This document shows positions 9,414 through 26,171 of a stretch of DNA of 50,155 bases, one piece after another. The notes under the pieces were generated by a model, which worked only from the letters and a program-made list of their open reading frames with translations, was not told the DNA's origin and did not search any database. How positions within the stretch are numbered: the first letter of the stretch is position 1; each line of letters opens with the position of its first letter. The translations under genes and the position numbers were made by a program. The stretch comes from a virus, in IMG/VR virus record IMGVR_UViG_3300045125_000156; one strand, given 5' to 3'.

Positions 9414-9685
9414 CTCAGCGTACGGAATCGCCGGGCTTCCCGGTTCGATTCCGTATAGAGACGTGGAAACCGTCTCTCGGGCTCCGGGTCGAACTGCTTC
9501 GACCCAGTTACCGCCTCAAGGAACTCGATCACGAGTCCCTTGAGGGCAGACTGGTCTTCCTCCCGAACCCAGAGGACCCAGGACCGCCGCCCTTCAGCGT
9601 CGGTCCTGAGCCCCGGCGTCGGGTCGAATTCGACCTCGAACGCCGGCGTCGCCGCGATGGCTTCGGCGATCGCGGTCTTGTCCAC
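9414..9685 (-). CDS. hypothetical protein (3' end approximate)
   Basis: MDKTAIAEAIAATPAFEVEFD...; ORF read-through into element B is probably an indel. Confidence 0.45.
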
Positions 9686-9842
9686 CCCCTTTCAGGATGG
9701 ACTGGCGGAGGAGGGTCACGTGCAGACCCTCTTCCACGATGGGGCGCGTCTCCCCATCGTCGATCGCCTGCTGGGCACGTACCAGCAGGTCAAGCTCTTT
9801 GTCTTTGGGGACGAGCTTAGAGTACCCCTTATGCATTAATTG

Positions 9843-9922
9843 CACATGAGCTTTTACCCCGAACTCCCCCTGTTTTCTGACACCAAAAAAAGAATGAACC
9901 AGCCTTCGGCTGTTCTGTTCTC
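9843..9922 (-). promoter_or_regulatory. intrinsic terminator followed by promoter variant
   Basis: Hairpin agaacagaacagccgaaggctggttcattct + T7, then AAAACAGGGGGAGTTCGGGGTAAAAGCTCATGT. Confidence 0.6.
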
Positions 9923-9929
9923 ACGCCGT

Positions 9930-10580
9930 TCTTTGCGGCGGCTTCATTCCTCGAAGCTGAGGTTGAGAATGACCTGCCTACTGCAGGTCATTCTCCCAGA
10001 AACGCCCGGGCCATCCGTGATCTTTGGCCCCCGGATCAGACCGTTATTTCGACCTTATCCGGGCCGAAGCTCCCCGGCTTCTCAAAGGTCAAAACGTACA
10101 CCATCCCGCTCTAGCCAGAACGGGCTTTGCCACCGACCGTCGGCAAGCGTCTCCGTGACAAAAAGCCCCACGGTCCTTTGCCCCGCATCCCACGACGGCT
10201 TCTGAAACGCCCGGATCGTGGCCTCGGGGATCCCCGCGCCCCGGGGAGCAGTGTACCGAAGGGCGTCCACCATCTGATAGTTGTGGTCGACTTTTGTTCG
10301 CGTTGCGATCTGCGCTGCGAATGAAATCTGGGGCTGAAACGGGCCCGTATCCAGGACCAAACCACCTTGTAAAAACCCTGTACCCGGTACACGCTTTCAT
10401 CCGTGCCCGTAGGGTCATCGTAATAAAACTGCCCCTTGGCCGCATCCCACGAAGGGCCGTGGGGCGCTGGTCCATCACAACGGCTGCAAGGATGTACGGG
10501 CCAGACGACGTAGCGGCCACACGCACTTCATAGAAGTCAGCAGCGGGTGTCGCGGGGTCCCAGTAAATGCGGGTCGGCAT
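9930..10580 (-). CDS. putative virion structural protein (FN3-like N-terminus; frameshifted)
   Basis: MPTRIYWDPATPAADFYEVRVAATSSGPY... joined to KVDHNYQMVDALRY...TETLADGRWQSPFWLE. Confidence 0.45.
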
Positions 10581-11259: not shown

Positions 11260-11469
11260 GAGGCACCCTACCACGGGTTTTTGAAAGCACCTAGCGGGCC
11301 AACGAAATACCCGTCGGAGCGCCCATGCAGCTTCTTTGCCAGCGCCACAACCGCCCCCGAGTACCATACGGGTTCACCCCTACGTTTGGGCTTATCCTTA
11401 ATAATGATTCAAAGCTCACGGCCGAGCTAGTACCGGGGGCTTTTTACTGAACGGTTGACAAGTAGCTGA

Positions 11470-11805
11470 AAGCCTTAATAAGAGCCTCTTCGAGGCGAAA
11501 TAAGCCCGAATAACCTTATTACAAAATTATTAAAATAAGCCTTATTAACCCTTATTACCCTGCAAGTTCGGGCACTTAGCCGATTCGTATTACTTAATTA
11601 TTTTAATATTATTTTAACAACCTAAATCGACCCTCGTGAGAGAGATGTGAGTGTGTGACGACGGTGAGAGAGGTGGATAGGTTGGTATGAATTATGCGAA
11701 ATACAAAAACAGTGCCATTGATAGCCTAAGGTACGCGATTTAAGACACTAATATATTAATAAATAATTATCTATTAAAATAAATAAATAAAGAGAAAAAA
11801 GAGAG
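11470..11805. other. AT-rich non-coding island at a strand switch; candidate origin or genome-end region
   Basis: Strongly AT-rich against a GC-rich background, no ORFs, repeated ccttatta, divergent genes on both sides. Confidence 0.5.
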
Positions 11806-15430: not shown

Positions 15431-15594
15431 TGATTTCCTCCGCGATCTCCAGCTCGATCAGCTCGAGCCCGGTTTGAAAGCATCGGCCGCAGCTCTCTTC
15501 TCAGCTTTTCCGACACCGCCGAGCCCAAAGCCTTGTCGGTGGTGTCCGTCACGATCAGGTCCGAACCGGATATCGTCCACTTCGTCCCCGTCCA

Positions 15595-16431: not shown

Positions 16432-16596
16432 TGGATCTACCGCCACTTTTCCTCGCTGAAGATCATGCTTGTCCTTCCAGGCGGTGATCCTCACCGCCGG
16501 CCATTGGTTGGTGAGCTTGAGCAGTTCGCCGTCGTTGATGATGGCCCCGTACGCAGGGAGCGCCAGGGTGGCGATATGGTCAGTTCGCGTAAACGA

Positions 16597-17040
16597 TCAC
16601 TCTTCCTCGTCGAGGTACCCCAGCGCCCCGAGCGCTTCTCTCATGGCCTCGTCGGACGGCCAGCCCCCGCCGCCGTCACGCGGCTCAACCTGACGCTGAT
16701 CGTTGTCCCAGAACCAGCGCCAGACCTCGTCGGGCCAGGTGTCGGGCGCGCCGGCCTTGACCATGCGCCCGCCGATCGACTCGATGTTCGCCTGCGTGGC
16801 TTCAGAATTCACGCCGTGAAAAGTCGTCTTCGTCGGCCACGGGATAATCGTCGAGCTGTCAAGACCGCTCTGAGGAAGTGGTAGATCGCCGTCGGCTCGT
16901 TCTCTTCTCGTCAAGCACCCTGAACGACAGGTGCTCCACCACCCACGGCCCAGTGGCTGAAGCCGATGAGGTTCCCACTGGTCGTCGAATTCTTCTTGGC
17001 CTTGAGCGCCTTCTCCAAGGCGCGTTCCCAGTTGACTCAT
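16597..17040 (-). CDS. hypothetical protein
   Basis: Trp/acidic-rich ORF; its stop overlaps the next start. Confidence 0.45.
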   Translation of the reverse strand: MSQLGTRLGEGAQGQEEFDDQWEPHRLQPLGRGWWSTCRSGCLTRRERADGDLPLPQSGLDSSTIIPWPTKTTFHGVNSEATQANIESIGGRMVKAGAPDTWPDEVWRWFWDNDQRQVEPRDGGGGWPSDEAMREALGALGYLDEEE

Positions 17041-18977
17041 CCAGAGGTCTGGTCACGGGTAAGAACCACAGGCCCGACGCACCAGTGCTCAGGGTCCTGC
17101 TCTCTCGGGTGATCGCTGGAGATCCAGCAGTCACTCGGCTTCTTCAGAAGCTCTTTGATTTCCGTTGATTTCCCCGTTCACGGCGTCGTTCACAGCGTCC
17201 CTCCGGCGGCGTCACGGCTGCGGCCACGGCCTCACACACGGCGTCGTTCGCGGCGCCCCTCACGGCGCGGTTCACGGCGTTGTTCACGGCGTTGTTCACG
17301 CGCACCGCACGGCGTCGTGCCGGCCCTCCGGCGCCGTTCCGTCGCCTCCTGCGGCGCGGTTCACGGCGTTGTTACGTCATTCATTGATTTTCCTGTTCGC
17401 GGCGTCGTACACGGCGTCCCTCACGGCGCGGTCCACGGCGACGTCACGGCGGTCGTCCCGGCGACGTACACGGCGTCGTGCACGGCGTTCCGGCGCGGCC
17501 CACGGCGCGGTTCACGGCGCGTTCACGACGCCGTTCACGCATCGTCCACGGCGTCCCACACGTCGTGGCCACGGCGCGGTTGCGTCGCTCCTCACGGCGC
17601 CCCTCACGGCGGCGTTCACGTCATTCATTGATTTCCTCCTCTGCGGCGGCGTCTACGTCATTCACGATTTCCTCCCTCGGCGTCGTACACGGCGGCGTTC
17701 CGCTCTCGCGCGCGGCCTCGACGCGACCTCGTACACGGCGTCCCACGGCGTCGTTCACGGCGTCGTTCACGGCGCCGTTCACGGCGTCGTCCACGGCGCC
17801 CACGGCGTCGTCCACGTCACTCATTGATTTCCTCACCTCCGGCCTCCTCTACGGCGCCCCTCACGGCGTGGTCCACGGCGTCGTGCACGGCGCCCGCACA
17901 TGGCGTCCCTCACGGCGGCGTACACGGCGCCTTCACGGCGCCGTACGGCGCGGTTCACGGCGTTGTTCACGTCATTCATTGATTTTCCTGTTCACGGCGT
18001 CATTGCACGGCGTCCCTCACGGCGCGGTCCACGGCGACGTACACGGCGTCGTCCACGGCGTCGTACACGGCGTCCCTCACGGCGTCGTCCACGGCGCCCC
18101 TCACGGCGCGGTCCACGGCGACCCACACGGCGTCGTCCACGGCGTCGGCCACGTCATTCATTGATTTCCTCCCACGGCGTCGTCCACGGCGTAGTACACG
18201 GCACCCCTCACGGCGTCGTCCACGGCACCCTCACGGCGACGTCCACGGCGTCCATCATGTTGCCCGCCACTTCGCCCCACACGGCGTCGTTCACGGCGCA
18301 GTCCACGGCGACGTACACGGCGCCCTCACGGCGCCCCTCGCGACGTCGTTCACGTCATTCATTGATTTCCTCCCTCACGGCGCGGCTCACGGCGCGGCTC
18401 ACGGCGTCCACACGGCGTTGTCTACAGCGCCCCCACGGCGTCGTCCACGGCGGCGTTCGCGGCGTCGTTCACGGCGGCCCTCACCGGCGCGGTCCACGGC
18501 GCGGTCCACGGCGGCGTACACGGCGTCGGTCACGTCGCTCATTGATTACATCCCTCACGGCGCGGCCTCACGCGCGGCTCACGGCGTCGTACACGGCGGC
18601 GTTCACGGCGCGACTCACGGCGCGATTCACGGCGCGATTCACGGCGCGGTCCACCGCGCGTTCCACGGCGCCCCACACGACGTGGTCCACGGCGTCGTTC
18701 ATGGCGTCCCACACGGCGGCGTTCACGCCGCCGTTTACGGCGGCGTTCACGTCGGCGTTTACGGCGTCGTTCACGTCATTCATTGATTTCCTCCTTTACG
18801 GAGCCCCTCACGGCCTCCTCTACGTCGCCCCTCACGGTGCCCCACACGGCGTCCCATACGTCGCCCCTCACGGCGCCCCACGGCGTCGTCCACGGCGCCC
18901 TCACGGCGTCGTTCACGGCGCCCCTCACGGCGCGGTCCACGGCGACCCTCACGGCGCGGTTCACGGCGGCGGTCACG

Positions 18978-19178
18978 TCACTCGTTGATTTCCTCCTCTA
19001 CGGCGACGTACACGGCGTCGTACACGGCGGCGTTCACGGCGTCGTCCACGGCGCGGCTCACGGCGCGGCTCACGGCGCCCCACACGGCGTCGTCCACGGC
19101 GTCGTCCACGGCGTCGTACACGGCACCCCTCACGGCGCCCCTCGCGGCGCCCCTCACGGCGTCGTTCACGTCATTCAT
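18978..19178 (-). CDS. array unit mini-protein (66 aa, intact example)
   Basis: MNDVNDAVRGAARGAVRGAVYDAV...VAVEEEINE; RBS GAGGAGG lies in the previous unit's EEE codons. Confidence 0.75.
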   Translation of the reverse strand: MNDVNDAVRGAARGAVRGAVYDAVDDAVDDAVWGAVSRAVSRAVDDAVNAAVYDAVYVAVEEEINE

Positions 19179-19959
19179 TGATTTCCTCCTCTACGGCGAC
19201 GTACACGGCGTTGTCTACGGCGCCCACACGGCGTCGTACACGGCGCCCCACCCGGCGTCGTCCACGGCGCCCCACACGGCGTCCCTCACGGCGTCGTCCA
19301 CGGCGTCGTCCACGGCGTCGTACACGGCGGCGTACACGGCTGCGTCCACGGCGTCGGTCACGTCACTCATTGATTTCCTCCTCACGGCGCGGTTCACGGC
19401 GCCCCACACGGCGCCCCACGGCGTCCCACACGGCGTTGTTCACGGCGCCCCACACGACGCCGTACACGGCGTCGTCCACAGCGTCGTCCACGGCGGCCCT
19501 CACGGCGTCGTACACGGCGTCGTCCACGGCGCGCCTCACGGCGGCCCTCACGGCGTCGTTCACGGCTGCGTCCACGGCGTCGTACACGGAGCGGCTCGCG
19601 GCGCCGTTCACGTCACTCCATTGATTTCTCCCTCACGGCGCCCCTCGGCGCCCCACACGGCGTGCCACACGGCGTCGTTCACGGCGCCCCACACGGCGTC
19701 GTACACGGCGGCGTTCACGGCGTCGTTCACGGCGGCCCTCACGGCGCGGTCCACGGCGGCGTCCACGGCGTCGTACACGGCGGCGTCCACGGCGACCCTC
19801 ACGGCGTCGATCACGTCATTCATTGATTTCCTCCTTTACGGAGCCCCTCACGGCCTCCTCTACGTCGCCCCTCACGGCGCCCCACACGGCGTCGTCCACG
19901 GCGTCCTCACGGCGTCGTTCACGGCGCCCCTCACGGCGCGGTTCACGGCGGCGTTCACG

Positions 19960-20148
19960 TCACTCATTGATTTCCTCCCACACGGCCTCCTCTACGGTGC
20001 CCCTCACGGTGCCCCACACGGCGCCCCACACGGCGCCCCTCACGGCGTCGTCCACGGCCTCCCACACGGCGTCGTCCACGGCGCCCCTCACGGCGTCGTT
20101 CACGGCGCCCCTCACGGCGCGGTTCACGGCGGCGTTCACGTCACTCAT
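19960..20148 (-). CDS. array unit mini-protein (62 aa, intact example)
   Basis: MSDVNAAVNRAVRGAV...EEAVWEEINE. Confidence 0.75.
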   Translation of the reverse strand: MSDVNAAVNRAVRGAVNDAVRGAVDDAVWEAVDDAVRGAVWGAVWGTVRGTVEEAVWEEINE

Positions 20149-20717
20149 TGATTTCCTCCCACACGGCCTCCTCTACGGCGCCCCTCACGGTGCCCCACAC
20201 GGCGCCCACACGGCGCCCCACACGGCGTCGTACACGGCGCCCCACACGGCGTCGTCCACGGCGTCGTCCACGGCGTCGTACACGGCGGCGTACACGGCTG
20301 CGTCCACGGCGTCGGTCACGTCACTCATTGATTTCCTCCTCACGGCGCGGTTCACGGCGCCCCACACGGCGCCCCACACGGCGTCGTTCACGGCGCCCCA
20401 CACGGCGTCGTACACGGCTGCGTCCACGGCTCGCGTCCACGGCGTCGTACACGGCGTCGTCCACGGCGGCGTCCACGGCGGCGTTCACGTCATTCATTGA
20501 TTTCTCCTCACGGCGTCGTTCACGGCGCCCCACACGGCGACGTACACGGCGTCGTCCACGGCGTCGTACACGGCGCTCCACATGGCGTCCCTCACGGCGT
20601 CGCCCACGGCGCCCCACACGGCGTCGCCCACGGCGCGGCTCACGGCGCTCCTCACGGCGTCGTTCACGGCGCTCCTCACCGGCGTCGTTCACGGCGTTTT
20701 GCATGCCGCTTCCCACC

Positions 20718-21017
20718 TCATTTTCCATCGAGCTCCTCCCTCACGGCAGCGCGCACTGCGGTGTCAACCGCCACGACGAAGCCGTCGTCGGTCGTGCAAA
20801 GCGCTACCCTTTCACGCCCGCGTAATTGCGGAAAAAGAGCGACGTCTTCTTCTTCGACGCGCCACCAGCGAACGCCATCTTCCGAGAGCCCGTCTTCCCG
20901 TCGAATTGATCGAAGTACGGGACGTACGGTTCTTCCCCTTGATACTTGCCGGGGCGCCTTACTTCCTCGGCAAAAAAATCGACGTCCATGCGCTTCCTCC
21001 CACACGGCGGCCAGCAT
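20718..21017 (-). CDS. hypothetical protein coupled to the first array unit
   Basis: Its stop overlaps the ATG at 20728; ends AVRAAVREELDGK; true start may be 20989 (GGAGG RBS) with an indel. Confidence 0.45.
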   Translation of the reverse strand: MLAAVWEEAHGRRFFCRGSKAPRQVSRGRTVRPVLRSIRREDGLSEDGVRWWRVEEEDVALFPQLRGRERVALCTTDDGFVVAVDTAVRAAVREELDGK

Positions 21018-21144
21018 TCAGCTTTTCACGCCGTGGAAATGACCGCCGAAAGGCCGAACGCCGCGCCCAAGCACGCAATCCCTCACCCCATGTGAGAAAT
21101 TTCTTGGGCGCGGCGAGTCGGCTCTTCGGCCGAGAAACAGGTTG

Positions 21145-22168
21145 TTAGGTACGAACTTCCAGCTGGAGCTCATCCGGCTGGAGGCCGAAGGTCCAGGCGT
21201 TCGCCGCCCGGGCCGTTGTCATCTCCGCCGGCACCGGCAGGACGAAGGTCCTCCCCGTGCCGCAGAGCACCTTGAGGAACCGCGAACGGCTACCCTCAAG
21301 ATCGACTTCGAGGAGCACGCCGATCTGCGGATCGGCCGTCCGCATCGATCGTCGTCGGCTGCAGGAGGTCGAGCACCTTCTGCCAGCCGATGATCTCGGC
21401 CGCACATCGCCGGAGCTCGATGTTCTCGTGCTCCCAGCGCGACCCGAGGGTCGAGCCCCGAGGGGTTCTCGATCCACTCGCGAGGCACCCTCGTCCCTCG
21501 CCAGTAATGAAGGCACCAGCCGTCCGGCCACGAGATGGCCGGCCCCGTCTCGCCGTGCAGGCGGCCCTGCACGTCTCGCGTCAGAATGCACGGGCGCTCG
21601 GTAGCGACCGTGAATTCGTGGTGCGCCCACCACCACCCGCACGAAGAGTCGACGTCTTCGCGCGGGCCGACGGGGATGTCGGAGACGTCGAGGATGTCGC
21701 GGATGAACGTGGCCCACGCGGTGAATGAGCACCACCAGGCCCCGCCGCTGTAGCGGGACCAGGCGTTCCTCACCGCCGACGCCGGGTTGAGGCGCTGCAG
21801 CGCCTCTTCGCCGTCGTCACCCACGAGGGCCACCGCCGTGAGGACCTCGCGGATCACCCGCGTGACCTCCGGCCGGAGCGCTTCGTTGGTGACGAAGCGC
21901 GCGACGAACGCCGGCACGTGCTCGCGCACGTCGCCCTTGACGTTCTCCACGATCAGCGCGCTCGCCGGCGCGGCGAGCGCCGTCACGATCGGGGACCCCG
22001 ACCAGACGATCGCCTTGGGCGGCGTGAGCCTCGCCGCCTCGTAGTGGGCGATGATGCCGCGCTCAGCGCGCGGCCGGTCGGCCGGAGCCGTCGACAGGCC
22101 GACCTGGATGTACTTGTCGACCCAGCCGGCGATCTGGGCCTTTTGTGCGTCCGTGATATTGGTAATCA
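21145..22168 (-). CDS. DUF6745-domain protein (frameshifted)
   Basis: GLSTAPADRPRAE...IVWSGSP...CGWWWAHHEFTVATERP..LTRDVQGRLHGETGPAISWPDGWCLHYWRGTRVP...LKVLCGTGRTFVLPVP..TARAANAWTFGL. Confidence 0.85.
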
Positions 22169-22508
22169 TTTCAGTCCTCCACCGCCCGGAAACCTTCCGG
22201 GGTGTATTCACGCTGCCGACGAATCTCCCAGACGCCCGCCGCCAACATGACGGGGCGTGCGTGTCGATGAGGCCGTGCGTGCACGACCTCGCGCGGCTCA
22301 CTGAGCCGCAAGAAAAGCCTCAAGGGGTCCGGCCCCTTGAACAGTTCCACCCCTCCACGGGGAGGGTGTGGTGGTTGCCGTTGACGCTCAAAGCGACAAC
22401 GAATCGCCCACCCGTCGGGGCGACGGGGTTGAGGTTGCTGGGGAGTTCCGGAATTCTCCGGAACAACAGATCCCCTTGCGCTGCCATTGTCGAAATCATC
22501 ATCATCAT
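22165..22508 (-). CDS. QGD-motif small protein of the type commonly adjacent to DUF6745 (frameshifted)
   Basis: AAQGDLLFRRIPELP...GNHH...H...GVWEIRRQREY. Confidence 0.6.
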
Positions 22509-22514
22509 TCTCCT

Positions 22515-22694
22515 TCAATCGGTTCGTTCACGTCGCTCTGATCGTACCCCGTGAGAATTCTCGGGCCGATATCGCGACAGCTTTTCGCGTTTGCAATCTT
22601 CGCAAACGCGGCACAGAGGAATCCTCTGCGCGTCGTGAGCCCACCAGGAGGGCTTGGTCGACACGGTGCCACCTACACACAGGTGCTCACGCAT
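22515..22694 (-). CDS. small Cys-containing hypothetical protein
   Basis: MREHLCVGG...WWAHDAQRIPLCRVCEDCKREKLSRYRPE. Confidence 0.5.
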   Translation of the reverse strand: MREHLCVGGTVSTKPSWWAHDAQRIPLCRVCEDCKREKLSRYRPENSHGVRSERRERTD

Positions 22695-23745
22695 CCTTGT
22701 ACCCTTTTCTTTAATAATTTTCGACTGCGGGCGCGCCCAGGCCCCGCACGACACTTGGCAGACCGTTGACCAGCGGGTCTTCGCACTGAAAAGATCGACC
22801 CTATTTTTTATTTTTTCCACGCCCCCCTTGCGCCCCTTTTTGGGAGGGCTATAGTTCCTCTCGTTGACACGGTTGATGCCCCTCGTAGCCGAGTCGTCCG
22901 GTGAGGGTAGAGAGACACCAGCAGAACCCGTTTGCGGGATCATTTGGTCGATCGAAAGCCAGAAGCGCTTCTGGCTTGAGTGTCAGCTGGGGATCAGAGT
23001 CCCAAGACGGCGGCTGAGACAGCTCGGAGCGTCGAGAAGAAAGGTCAGTGCCCTAGGATCCAAGGGCCCTGGCCTTTCGCATTTCCTAGACCCCGGACTT
23101 CTGCGACGGGTGCAGCTCCCCCGAGCGCGGCTTGCCGTCGATCTGACGGTTGTACGCCTCCACCAGATCCAACGAGAAATCGTCTGGAATCCGGCACGAA
23201 TACCTCGAGGATCTGAAGCCCGTGCCGGGTCTTCCAGGGTAGGTGCCCGGGGCCTCCCCGTAGCGCACGTAGCGTACGAGCACGCTCCAGCCGCGCTCCT
23301 CCATCGACGCCTCAATCCCCTCGAACCACTCCTCTGGCGTCTCGTCCAGGAGTGGTTGCGATCACAAACTCATCGTCCTTGTCCATTCGGTTTCTCTTTC
23401 GGCTCCAGCCGATATGGCGTCAGATCCGCCTTCCGGGTTGATCTCCCAGAGCGCGACTTCGCGCTCGTGGATGTTCCTCTCCTCGTCGGAGTACTTGTAA
23501 CGGTTTCCCGTTTTCGTCAGTACCCCGCCATCGCGTAGCTCTGCGGAACACGGCTCCGAGCCAGTGAGCCCGGCCTTCGCCCGTGATGATCCCATCGGCG
23601 ATAAGCGCGTCCCACACTTCGCGGCTGTGCACCGTGAGCTTGCGGAGTGCGATCTTCACCGCGTAGTGCATCCCCCACTGGATGTGCAGGGCTTGGTGGC
23701 CTGGAAGCCTCTCCATGGCCGCCCGCGTGCCCGTACCGGCGTCGG

Positions 23746-23998
23746 TCACGGGCCCTCCTCTGTGGTCTGATCGATGGCGAACTCTTCGCCGACATCGACG
23801 AGCACCACGTCCATTCCCATGAAGCGCTCACGGCTACACAAGAGATCGACGAAGTCGTAGTGAAACGCCAGCCGACTTTTGTGCAGCGCCTCGTCCACGT
23901 CACGCCGTAGGCGGATTGTGTTCGGCGGTTGGCCGTGTTTCTTGGAATACGCATTCAGGGCCTGCTCGATGGCAGCCCCCACCTTGGTTGCATCCCAT
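23746..23998 (-). CDS. hypothetical protein
   Basis: GGAAGGA RBS; stop overlaps the next start. Confidence 0.45.
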
Positions 23999-24105
23999 GC
24001 CGTTTCCTTCCTAAGACGACGGCCCCGGAAACCTCACGTTGCCTGCCGTGTGGTGTCCGAGGCCGTCTGGGTTTAGGGCTCCCATGGGCAGACTATCAGC
24101 TTTCT

Positions 24106-24468
24106 TCAGAAAGCCAAGTCTTCCATGAAGTCGACGATCTCTTTGGCCAGACAGGTGTCCGGGTCGCCGCATTTCACCTGGTGAAAAAACACCAGGAGGT
24201 CGGCGGCCATGCTGGCCTTGTCGCGCCCGCCGGGCGAATCCCACATGCCGCCCGGCCGAACGGCCTCCTGGATGTCCGCAAAGAGCGCCCGCAGCTCTGC
24301 GTCTTTGCAAAGAGAAAGGTACATTCCCAAGCCTGTCGGCGCCGCCAGATGGCGCTGCCGCAGGCGGTTGATGTACGCGAGAGCCTCAAGTTTTTCGGCC
24401 CGCGTGTTGAAGGGGACCGTCCACCCCGGCTCGCGAAGCATGATGTCGGTCTGCCGTTCGGACAACAT
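24106..24468 (-). CDS. hypothetical protein
   Basis: Intact 120-aa ORF with a plausible RBS. Confidence 0.55.
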   Translation of the reverse strand: MLSERQTDIMLREPGWTVPFNTRAEKLEALAYINRLRQRHLAAPTGLGMYLSLCKDAELRALFADIQEAVRPGGMWDSPGGRDKASMAADLLVFFHQVKCGDPDTCLAKEIVDFMEDLAF

Positions 24469-24785
24469 AACGATACCTTTCTTCCGCGCTGCCCTCGAAC
24501 GAATCGTTCCAGGTTTGAACGTCGCGGAGATCTACGATCGTAAGGCCTGTTTGGGCCTTGAGAAGGCGCCAAAGGGTTTGGCGCGCTTTGAGCTGGAGGT
24601 CGTCGTCTTCGGTGAAGTGCTCGCCTTCCAACTCCAAAATGTTTCTTGGATCGAGACAGCGCAGTCCCCACACGGGGCTCTGGCCCTCGACCTCCCCGGC
24701 GTATTCGGGGATGAACGCTCCAATCACGCAGAAGCTATCGCCTTCACGATAGCTCCCGCGTATGAAGCGGTTTGTCCGACAACCC

Positions 24786-25317
24786 TTTGAGCCGCCGGAC
24801 AAAGAACTCCCAATCAGCCGGCAAGCCCCATCTCCTTTCTGCACGTGTGGCAGGTGACGAGCTCGTCGTCTGCCGCTGGCGGAGTGGGCCTCGACGCAGT
24901 CGAAGTACCGGCAGCGCAGGAGGTCCTGCGCCTTGTCGGCGCCAACGGCGGGCCACGGAACGTGGTTGGAGCTGTAGGTCGTTCCCCCACGGGGGACCTC
25001 CAGCGCGAACCCGTCCTTGTTGATGACCATGCGCGGCGAACACGGGACGAGGTGCTCGCCCTTGCCAGCGTCGAGCGCTTCGACGCGCATGAAGCACGTC
25101 ACCCTGACAGACGTCGGACCATTCATCCTCGTCTGTCAGGGCGCCTATGTGCAGGATGCGCGTGAATCTCTCTGGGTTGAAGCTCAGGTTGAGCATTCGC
25201 GCGTCGGAGAAGAGCCCTCGTAGCCGGGACACGTCAGCGTAAGAAACCGGCGTCCGCGCAGATCTCCGCGCAGACGCCATACGCGTTGATACGAAAAACA
25301 AAATACCGGTTGTCCAT
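24786..25317 (-). CDS. hypothetical protein (frameshifted)
   Basis: ATG 25317 with GGAGG RBS, downstream of a GGTATAAG promoter-like motif near 25355. Confidence 0.45.
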
Positions 25318-25739
25318 GGATTCCTCCAGAGCCCACACGATTGAAGGCAAGGGCTTATACCTGCAACGCGTTTGATTTTTAATCATGGCGCGTAACGTAC
25401 TCGCATGAACACGCACACGTTTCACCCACGCCGAAACTCGCAGCGCTGCGTCGGCGAATACGCACAGAGCGCTCGAGCACCGAAACAAAGGCGCAGAGCT
25501 ATTGGTGCTCGCCGTGATCAAGCACCTGTGCGCCGTCTTTACGAGTACGAGGTGCACACGCATCATCGCAGGGGTTCTGGGGTGCACGTCCTGGCGTACT
25601 GGTCAGAGTTTTTTAAACTAACCCCAGACGCCCGCACGACAGAAGTACGCGCCCGCCTTGCCTATGCCTGAGAGACAAAAGTAGACTTTTACGTATCCCC
25701 TCAACTGGAGCCGTTTCTCGAATGAACCTCGATAAGCTG

Positions 25740-25995
25740 ATGAAGAAGCTGCCCCCGGATTTGCCGACGACGTGGCGAGTCTGGGCGAGCCCGGATTGAA
25801 GGACGTTGCGCTGCAGGCGGAGACGAACATCCGCCGGGTGGAGCAGGAGCGCGAAGGAGACGAGCGGCTCTCCGGGGCCAAGGAGGTCGTGCGGGACCTG
25901 AATGGCCCTACCGCGATGCCATCAACGCGCAGCGCGAAGATCGCATACGTGCTTTATCTGTTGGACGAGCGGGGTAAGCTCCCGAAGCCACGTGA
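25740..25995 (+). CDS. hypothetical helical protein (frameshifted)
   Basis: KDVALQAETNIRRVEQEREGDERLSGAKEVVRDL...AKIAYVLYLLDERG. Confidence 0.5.
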
Positions 25996-26168
25996 AAAAG
26001 TTTCTCGTGGAAGACAAAAACAGAACCCTGCTTGGGGAGTTTCAAGACATTCTCGACGCCATGGAGTTCTGTAAGAGTCAGGAAGACAGTCTCGTCATCC
26101 GCGTCGTCGATGGAGAGCGGACGGACATGACGTATCGGATAAAGGCGAGGCAGAATTTCACGAAGTGA
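25992..26168 (+). CDS. hypothetical protein
   Basis: GTG start MKKFLVEDKN...; converges on the gene ending at 26172. Confidence 0.4.
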   Translation: MKKFLVEDKNRTLLGEFQDILDAMEFCKSQEDSLVIRVVDGERTDMTYRIKARQNFTK

Positions 26169-26171
26169 AAG

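Follow-up and report, generated by a model that had tools for sequence, protein, structure and literature searches.

The window analysed here is the whole 50,155-nucleotide stretch of viral DNA in IMG/VR record IMGVR_UViG_3300045125_000156, which comes from a large, uncultured phage of fresh water, and the element under study is an array of about 18 mini-genes on its minus strand, beside a gene of the DUF6745 family. Read in order along the minus strand, the locus comprises a QGD-family gene, the DUF6745 gene, a short gene with an alanine-valine (AV) repeat tail and the mini-gene array (Table 1); this order had been given in a first-pass annotation of the same DNA and was confirmed in the sequence. 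The C-terminal end of the short gene (20989-20718) reads ...AVRAAVREELDGK, and its stop falls 11 nucleotides (nt) within the first mini-gene.

Table 1. Positions of the features discussed, in the window unless another sequence is named (aa, amino acids).
Feature	Position	Strand	Remark
QGD-family gene (phrog_27831)	22171-22508	-	Reads frameshifted near 22349
DUF6745 gene without internal tetrapeptide tract	21145-22169	-	Pfam PF20530; apparent frameshifts near 21433 and 21335
Short gene, unique N-terminal part and short AV-repeat tail	20718-20989	-	Tail ..VAVDTAVRAAVREELDGK
Array of about 18 apparently translationally coupled mini-genes	17150-20728	-	12-nt period; junction motifs
Intact mini-gene as sequenced, 62 aa	19960-20148	-	
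Intact mini-gene as sequenced, 71 aa	19608-19823	-	
Intact mini-gene as sequenced, 66 aa	18978-19178	-	Partner in complex model
Intact mini-gene as sequenced, 66 aa	18776-18976	-	GTG start
Intact mini-gene as sequenced, 71 aa	18568-18783	-	
Intact mini-gene as sequenced, 53 aa	18000-18161	-	
Junction starts	20505, 20336, 20156, 19975, 19831, 19629, 19378, 19186, 18993	-	
Junction starts, continued	18791, 18550, 18370, 18169, 17987, 17832, 17636, 17392, 17173	-	17173 is terminal
Initiation motif GGAGGAAATCAATG before an unrelated gene, outside the array	15431-15444	-	Motif match at 15441
Mini-gene array of phage G002	L042 2246-4361		
Mini-gene array of phage G002	L067 813-3063		

Tandem Repeats Finder returned a period of 12 over 17175-20697 (296 copies, 67% matches), which in frame reads GAC-GCC-GTG-NNN and encodes x-Ala-Val-x (xAVx). 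The repeat is broken 18 times, on the minus strand only, by GGAAATCAATGA-like junctions, the type in the window array being GGAGGAAATCAATGA(A/G)TGACGTG. The first mini-gene begins with the ATG at 20728, and each is built of a Shine-Dalgarno sequence GGAGGA, AATCA, an ATG, the N-terminal residues M[N/S]DV, a tract (xAVx)n of about 10-16 repeat units, the C-terminal residues (E)EINE and a stop codon, TGA, shared in part with the ATG of the next mini-gene. A junction encodes E-E-I-N-E-stop in one frame and M-N/S-D-V one base over, and carries a strong ribosome-binding site 5 bases ahead of the ATG. Since GGAGGAAATCAATG also precedes an unrelated gene (15441), the array junction is the normal start signal of this phage. 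About 18 mini-genes could be delimited in this way, 6 of which read intact in the window as sequenced.

The DUF6745 gene of the window matched PF20530 with 65.2 bits (cut-off 27; residues 210-286 against profile positions 28-104), and a second, C-terminal piece of the profile (positions 169-201) was located in another frame. Its 91%-identical relative P0005 is intact (340 aa) and was aligned end to end with 32 family members, and a full HMMER scan with the window gene recovered 4913 relatives at E <= 0.001. The first-pass annotation had stated that many phage DUF6745 proteins carry tetrapeptide repeats ahead of a Trp-rich segment, and this was borne out when homologues were aligned and their repeats scored: at least three in-phase [A/S]V tetrapeptide units were present in 46 of the 150 best representatives (longest run 26), and in the alignment the tract, which varies in length, sits between the W.xSP and W..Y.GG(Q)FW segments. 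Tract variants with SQV, AQV or SEV were also present, and tract lengths included 25 units in P0011, 26 in P0120, 47 in L003 and 63 in L004. A DUF6745-like match was also obtained to gene 38 of Mycobacterium phage prophiGD102-1.

The window copy has no 12-nt periodicity and is not tract-bearing when at least three in-phase x[A/S/Q]Vx units are required between W.xSP and W..Y.GG. It had been claimed to keep only the remnant SAVRNAW at this site. SAVRNAW is indeed its sole perfect unit, and the window's ...NPASAVRNAWSRYSGG aligns with the last tract unit and Trp-rich segment of the homologues; the word "only" did not stand, since an insert of about 60 residues keeps a period-4 valine pattern, with valine at each fourth residue (VKGD VREH VPAF VERF VTNE ...) and 6 V-V pairs at lag 4 (shuffle P = 0.005). 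This insert is unchanged in P0005 and was folded confidently as helices by AlphaFold2 (AF2; whole-protein mean predicted local distance difference test (pLDDT) 91.3, predicted template modelling (TM) score 0.82), and from its residue pattern it looks like a decayed, fixed tract. A Foldseek search of the PDB with the DUF6745 protein returned nothing at E <= 0.001, a wide VIA-align search was uninformative (best Z 5.5 over 58 residues), and DUF6745 was not mentioned in the literature searched. Querying metagenome contigs with P0005 returned one 1.9-kilobase (kb) locus only, and querying viral contigs with P0196 returned no relative. Many IMG/VR contigs were observed to begin or end in or at the DUF6745 tract (L004, L007, L008, L013, L015, L016, L018, L025 and others), and those of L001, L023 and L028 stop just past DUF6745. 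Because contigs end at tracts, both tracts and arrays are probably under-represented in public assemblies.

The mini-genes were compared with the internal tract using a profile built from the DUF6745 alignment (A1) and hmmsearch. Ten mini-gene open reading frames (ORFs) of the window matched this profile only at its tract positions, 83-159, with E = 5e-6 to 8e-9, and mini-genes on L026, L042 and L067 (see below) likewise matched the tract positions; these are low-complexity matches, which give support, short of proof, for common descent. A phmmer search with one mini-protein gave no match at E <= 0.001, probably through composition correction. The profile matches support the view that the mini-genes are stand-alone genes in the AV frame, homologous to the DUF6745 tract.

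Comparable mini-genes were found in other phage and prophage sequence. In phage G002 (IMGVR_UViG_3300048031_000576) two arrays are present, one with 10 and the other with 12 open genes; these genes are about 60-85 aa long and have the form M[T/I]N[D/V]AV-(xAVx)n-WEINHD-stop; its junction GGGAGATCAACCATGACTAA is of an EINHD type similar to the EEINE junction of the window, and the array on L042 opens with a gene of unique head and AV tail, like the short gene of the window. On L026, a contig of an Archangiaceae metagenome-assembled genome from a long-read assembly, 11 mini-genes of about 58-66 aa occupy six sites and take the form MKSVxxKV-(xQVx)n-SERLK-stop, all but one of them open. The start of the first overlaps the stop codon of DUF6745 (GTGA), and a 10.7-kb stretch around DUF6745 contains every one of the 11 mini-gene starts in this genome of 10.1 Mb. 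On L012 (IMG/VR 3300027820_000059), MENLRNQV-(xQVx)n-QLWRT-stop genes flank a repeat-less DUF6745-QGD pair on both sides. The L026 and L012 mini-genes differ from those of the window in their xQVx unit and in being scattered as singles, twos and threes, where the window has one 3.6-kb block; G002, L026 and L012 all resemble the window in having a fixed N-cap, a variable tract, a fixed C-cap that encodes the next ribosome-binding site, and overlap of stop and start. The mini-genes are always co-oriented with their neighbours, including a minus-strand pair on L026. An exact search of the viral contig collection for the junction motif gave 0 matches, and a profile search of the protein collection gave about 30 further small tract proteins at E <= 0.001, several of them on 70-120-kb contigs.

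Opposite the array, the plus strand carries long antisense ORFs (up to 388 aa, in HGVV, FTAS and RRPR frames, 17155-20825), which exist because the repeat is stop-free in every frame. Gene callers could pick these plus-strand ORFs over the mini-genes. A reading in which the AV mini-genes go untranslated, and the sequence is either a DNA- or RNA-level repeat (an array of binding sites) or codes for the long ORFs of the plus strand (362 and 388 aa), would fit with all six frames being largely open, with the plus-strand ORFs being the longest and with the antisense frame having identical wobble positions. We nevertheless regard it as very improbable, given that the start-signal junctions occur on the minus strand only, that the mini-genes are co-oriented with their neighbours and homologous in the AV frame to the DUF6745 tract, that three lineages have kept the size and the end motifs of the mini-genes, and that no Rfam family matched within 16500-23000. 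A scan for promoters and terminators gave no signal exceeding the shuffled background.

As sequenced, the frame changes twice in DUF6745, once in the QGD gene and once in the short gene, and about two-thirds of the mini-genes in the array shift frame or stop early. These interruptions were examined against L001 (IMG/VR contig 3300042305_002533), the source of P0005, in which the QGD gene (113 aa) is intact as well. Alignment of the window to L001 by blastn gave 42 gap openings in 5 kb, mostly single bases amid conserved sequence, and L001 is without the window indels at 21433, 21335 and 22349. Public contigs of four runs from different studies were also compared over 20650-24650. Among the sequencing runs screened, none of RNA was listed and none contained more than one-quarter of the sampled words, which places the source sample outside this set. 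The window indels at 20896, 21035 and 21433 were absent in all four runs, that at 21335 in one and that at 22349 in two, and contigs of run X1 differed from the window by 0-1 substitutions yet by 2-5 one-base gaps. Relative to near-identical public contigs and to L001, single-base indels occur in the window at about one per 80-260 nt, in ordinary genes too (20650-26170 and beyond), and many ordinary genes appear split into overlapping same-strand ORFs. Few substitutions combined with many one-base gaps are the signature of indel-prone assembly, unlike that of gene decay, and at the rate given the 3.6-kb array should contain tens of errors, so that its internal frameshifts are most likely biologically meaningless. 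The frameshifts in the DUF6745, QGD and short genes and in the mini-genes are thus most likely one-base sequencing errors, judging from these alignments. Any frameshift read elsewhere in this window is likewise a possible error.

The same frame changes could be taken at face value, the array then being a decaying remnant, a set of pseudogenes left by runaway tract duplication. The broken state of two-thirds of the mini-genes, and of DUF6745 and QGD beside them, speaks for decay; similar one-base gaps in ordinary genes, their lack in near-identical independent contigs and in L001, the open G002 arrays and the L026 mini-genes, open with one exception, speak against it, and we consider decay improbable.

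Codon usage within the repeat was analysed in 213 units extracted from the window array. Alanine is encoded by GCC in 208 of the 213 and valine by GTG in 204; the corresponding shares in the ordinary genes of L001 are 36% (GCC among Ala codons) and 44% (GTG among Val codons). The first x codon ends in C in 197 of the 213 units, and the variable positions of the x codons are their bases 1 and 2. Val is followed almost always by D, R, N, Y or W, for each of which a single codon is used (GAC, AGG, AAC, TAC and TGG, respectively), and Ala is preceded mostly by D, G, R, A or V. Frozen cores of other composition are present elsewhere, namely GCC-GTG with a T-ending x codon in G002 and CAG-GTC in L026. 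The best identities between mini-genes are 88-90%. In contigs of three other runs, from lake-water metagenomes and one further sample, the tail of the short gene is longer by 156 nt, or 13 units, at 20763/20764, which indicates that unit number changes between close strains. Together, these patterns point to evolution of the repeat through slippage and the shuffling of units, variation being retained at two exposed residues.

An array of many diverse units beside a putative expression locus, and one perfect unit (SAVRNAW) kept at the tract site of DUF6745, might also be expected of silent donor cassettes that recombine into the DUF6745 insert, as in antigenic variation of the pilS/vls type. 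The first-pass annotation had offered this as an alternative, and it fared poorly: the mini-genes are complete genes, each with its own Shine-Dalgarno sequence, start and stop, so none is silent; blastn of DUF6745 against the array gave one 10-12-nt match, equivalent to a single shared 12-nt unit, and no homology arms; P0005 has the same insert; and the mini-genes of L026 and L012 are scattered. We consider a donor role highly unlikely.

Linkage between mini-genes and DUF6745 was scored on loci with a judgeable tract region. Of 7 repeat-less loci, 3 had detached mini-genes, namely the window, L026 and L012, and the 27 tract-bearing loci had none (Fisher P about 0.006); in the set seeded by DUF6745 only, the counts were 3 of 7 and 0 of 10, respectively (P about 0.05); the counts are small and the related phages non-independent. 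The co-occurrence of repeat-less DUF6745 with adjacent mini-genes, which had been anticipated, is supported by these counts. Contig L001 ends 28 nt past DUF6745. A QGD ORF was present within about 500 nt of DUF6745 in 37 of the sequence sets examined, among them the window, and this held for every tract state. The QGD protein is about 110 aa long and belongs to no Pfam family; the L001 copy (113 aa, 9658-9999) matched phrog_27831 at 1.2e-10 and is 39% identical to the L026 copy (11303-11635). In a structure search of the ESM Atlas, QGD aligned with a DUF6745 cluster (TM-score 0.74 by query), and QGD may therefore resemble one DUF6745 domain at the level of predicted structure. From their adjacency in 37 sets, QGD and DUF6745 are a conserved pair to which the tract adds a third part, in cis or detached, and the three-component system proposed earlier is reasonable on the same grounds.

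Complex prediction was carried out with P0005 (8-row alignment) and the 66-aa window mini-protein marked in Table 1 (6 window mini-proteins aligned). Three runs scored 0.87, 0.84 and 0.84 and the best of three controls 0.01; of 80 solved complexes 58 attain the score mark applied, as do 2 of 110 mismatched pairs, counts that are rough here (custom alignments). The runs share at least 87% of contacts, with a partner pLDDT of at least 82. The predicted interface is formed by N-terminal helices (13-25, 41-48 and 60-65) and the Trp-rich helix (141-156), and it takes in about one-quarter of the residues and contains 9 of the 20 invariant or near-invariant columns of the family. The model supports docking of the mini-protein on the DUF6745 core, and the suggestion that such proteins act in trans with DUF6745 gains from the controlled co-fold (0.84 against 0.01), as a predicted complex only.

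We give about an even chance to the following explanation: the locus encodes about 18 co-transcribed, coupled mini-genes whose 50-70-residue proteins dock on DUF6745 and have a role in phage-host conflict. The mini-proteins, made up almost wholly of an (xAVx)n tract, are free-standing versions of the hypervariable central tract of DUF6745, which in many homologues lies between the N-terminal helical domain and the Trp-rich segment; in this lineage, DUF6745 itself retains what looks like a decayed, fixed tract, and variable tracts are encoded separately, directly downstream. The repeat module may have moved out of DUF6745, as the first-pass annotation proposed, or the change may have run in the other direction. 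Made alongside the QGD-DUF6745 pair, the mini-proteins would dock as helices in a conserved groove of the DUF6745 core, and one infection could then yield a mixture of core-plus-helix complexes that differ in two exposed residues per repeat. The repeat DNA would change by unit shuffling and slippage, leaving silent sites frozen and bases 1 and 2 of the x codons variable. We infer the docking, the mixture of complexes and the biological role from these comparisons and the model, and by analogy with the length-tunable tetrapeptide tract of Tweety gp54 the purpose is probably phage-host conflict.

A more specific form of this explanation is held tentatively. It proposes a split protein, in which a core of DUF6745 and QGD would be completed in trans by any of about 18 interchangeable, fast-changing helices and would so display recognition or inhibitor surfaces against varied host defences. 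The phage would in that case possess a built-in library that needs neither DNA rearrangement nor a retroelement and is renewed by repeat shuffling.

Several observations weigh against docking on DUF6745 as the function of the mini-proteins. Only 6 mini-genes of the window are intact, the rest being taken as intact from the error rate, and the linkage counts carry the limits given above. L017 and L029 have a repeat-less DUF6745 and no mini-genes within about 8-10 kb. When the tract-bearing homologue P0013 was folded with AF2, its cis tract (residues 85-128) had a pLDDT of 32-43, from which the cis tract may be a flexible linker or spacer rather than a docked helix. A flexible-spacer role has reportedly been proposed for the tract of Tweety gp54, a phage protein compared below. 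In G002, which has the AV unit and EIN junction in common with the window, neither DUF6745 nor QGD was found in 57 kb of sequence (13% of a genome by CheckV). Many small AV-tract proteins from metagenomes (P0155-P0260, 45-125 aa) carry another C-terminal motif (..HP[A/N]L[Q/D]DFL.., e.g. HPALQDFL), and from their sequences these look like members of a second family of tract mini-proteins, apparently a common one.

The last two of these also favour a serious rival, in which the mini-proteins are real and act independently of DUF6745, for instance as free amphipathic helices able to bind or titrate some factor of host or phage, or to serve as its decoy; the tract would then be a general-purpose module that DUF6745 merely happens to contain as well. 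Further points on its side are the L026 mini-genes that lie scattered between replication genes (VapE-like, PD-(D/E)XK and SNF2-like) and are not confined to sites next to DUF6745; similar tracts in Tweety gp54, and AV or AAV tracts in phage ORFs with no match to the DUF6745 profile (L039 5518-7005, L049 550-2013 and L057 3-536); and all-viral ESM Atlas clusters of 62-79-aa look-alikes, which are a lead only. Against independent action, detached mini-genes were found near repeat-less DUF6745 only, among evaluable loci; none of the 11 L026 mini-genes is more than about 5.5 kb away from DUF6745, in a genome of 10.1 Mb, and one of them is start-stop coupled to it; and the complex model passes its controls. 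We hold independent action to be possible, though doubtful, and prefer docking on the DUF6745 core.

The QGD-DUF6745 core is widespread in phages and prophages and unstudied. If the mini-proteins do complete this core in trans, they would represent a new viral route to many variants of one complex, and DUF6745 would gain a testable function. The family is probably under-counted, given that assemblies of short reads often stop at tracts and that mini-genes may be overlooked by gene callers.

Among known systems, the internal DUF6745 tract resembles the window array in its x-[A/S/Q]-V-x unit, 12-nt period, QGD neighbour and phage or prophage setting; it is held in cis, whereas the tract of the window is divided among about 18 separate genes with their own start and stop and fixed N- and C-caps. 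Many diverged copies beside a related gene, with few variable codons, are likewise features of Neisseria pilE/pilS, Borrelia vlsE and diversity-generating retroelements. The mini-genes differ from pilS and vls cassettes in being complete genes, not silent, and in having no homology arms to DUF6745. With regard to a diversity-generating retroelement, no template/variable-repeat pair was evident in the window, where no search for a reverse transcriptase was made, and variation spread over about 18 genes with a small, fixed set of codons is unlike a single template-variable pair.

Mycobacteriophage Tweety gp54, together with Che8 gp57 and PMC gp51, contains 15-48 tetrapeptide units encoded by a 12-bp repeat, with two fixed and two variable residues per unit; in Tweety gene 54 the third base of the codons is invariant and the first two bases are the ones that vary (PMC2884959). 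Tweety gp54 has 40-48 AAxx units, and escape mutants against the Phrann gp29/gp30 defence are altered in unit number (PMC9262239). The window array is alike in its 12-nt coding repeat, frozen silent positions and variable first and second bases; Tweety gp54 differs in its AAxx unit, where the window has xAVx, in the placement of the tract within one protein, and in having a tested role. NAAV units near the C-terminus of the 496-residue ORF on L039 were also reminiscent of Tweety gp54. Homology of Tweety gp54 to DUF6745 was not detected by Pfam (no match) or by hhalign against A1 (probability 0.3%), and the two fall in different PHROGs (phrog_3416 for Tweety gp54, phrog_31813 for P0005). By these sequence comparisons Tweety gp54 is the nearest studied analogue, alike in design and non-homologous. 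Phage proteins with tetrapeptide tracts are known; what is new here is a tract that stands apart from DUF6745, in many copies that form a gene library next to a conserved QGD-DUF6745 core.

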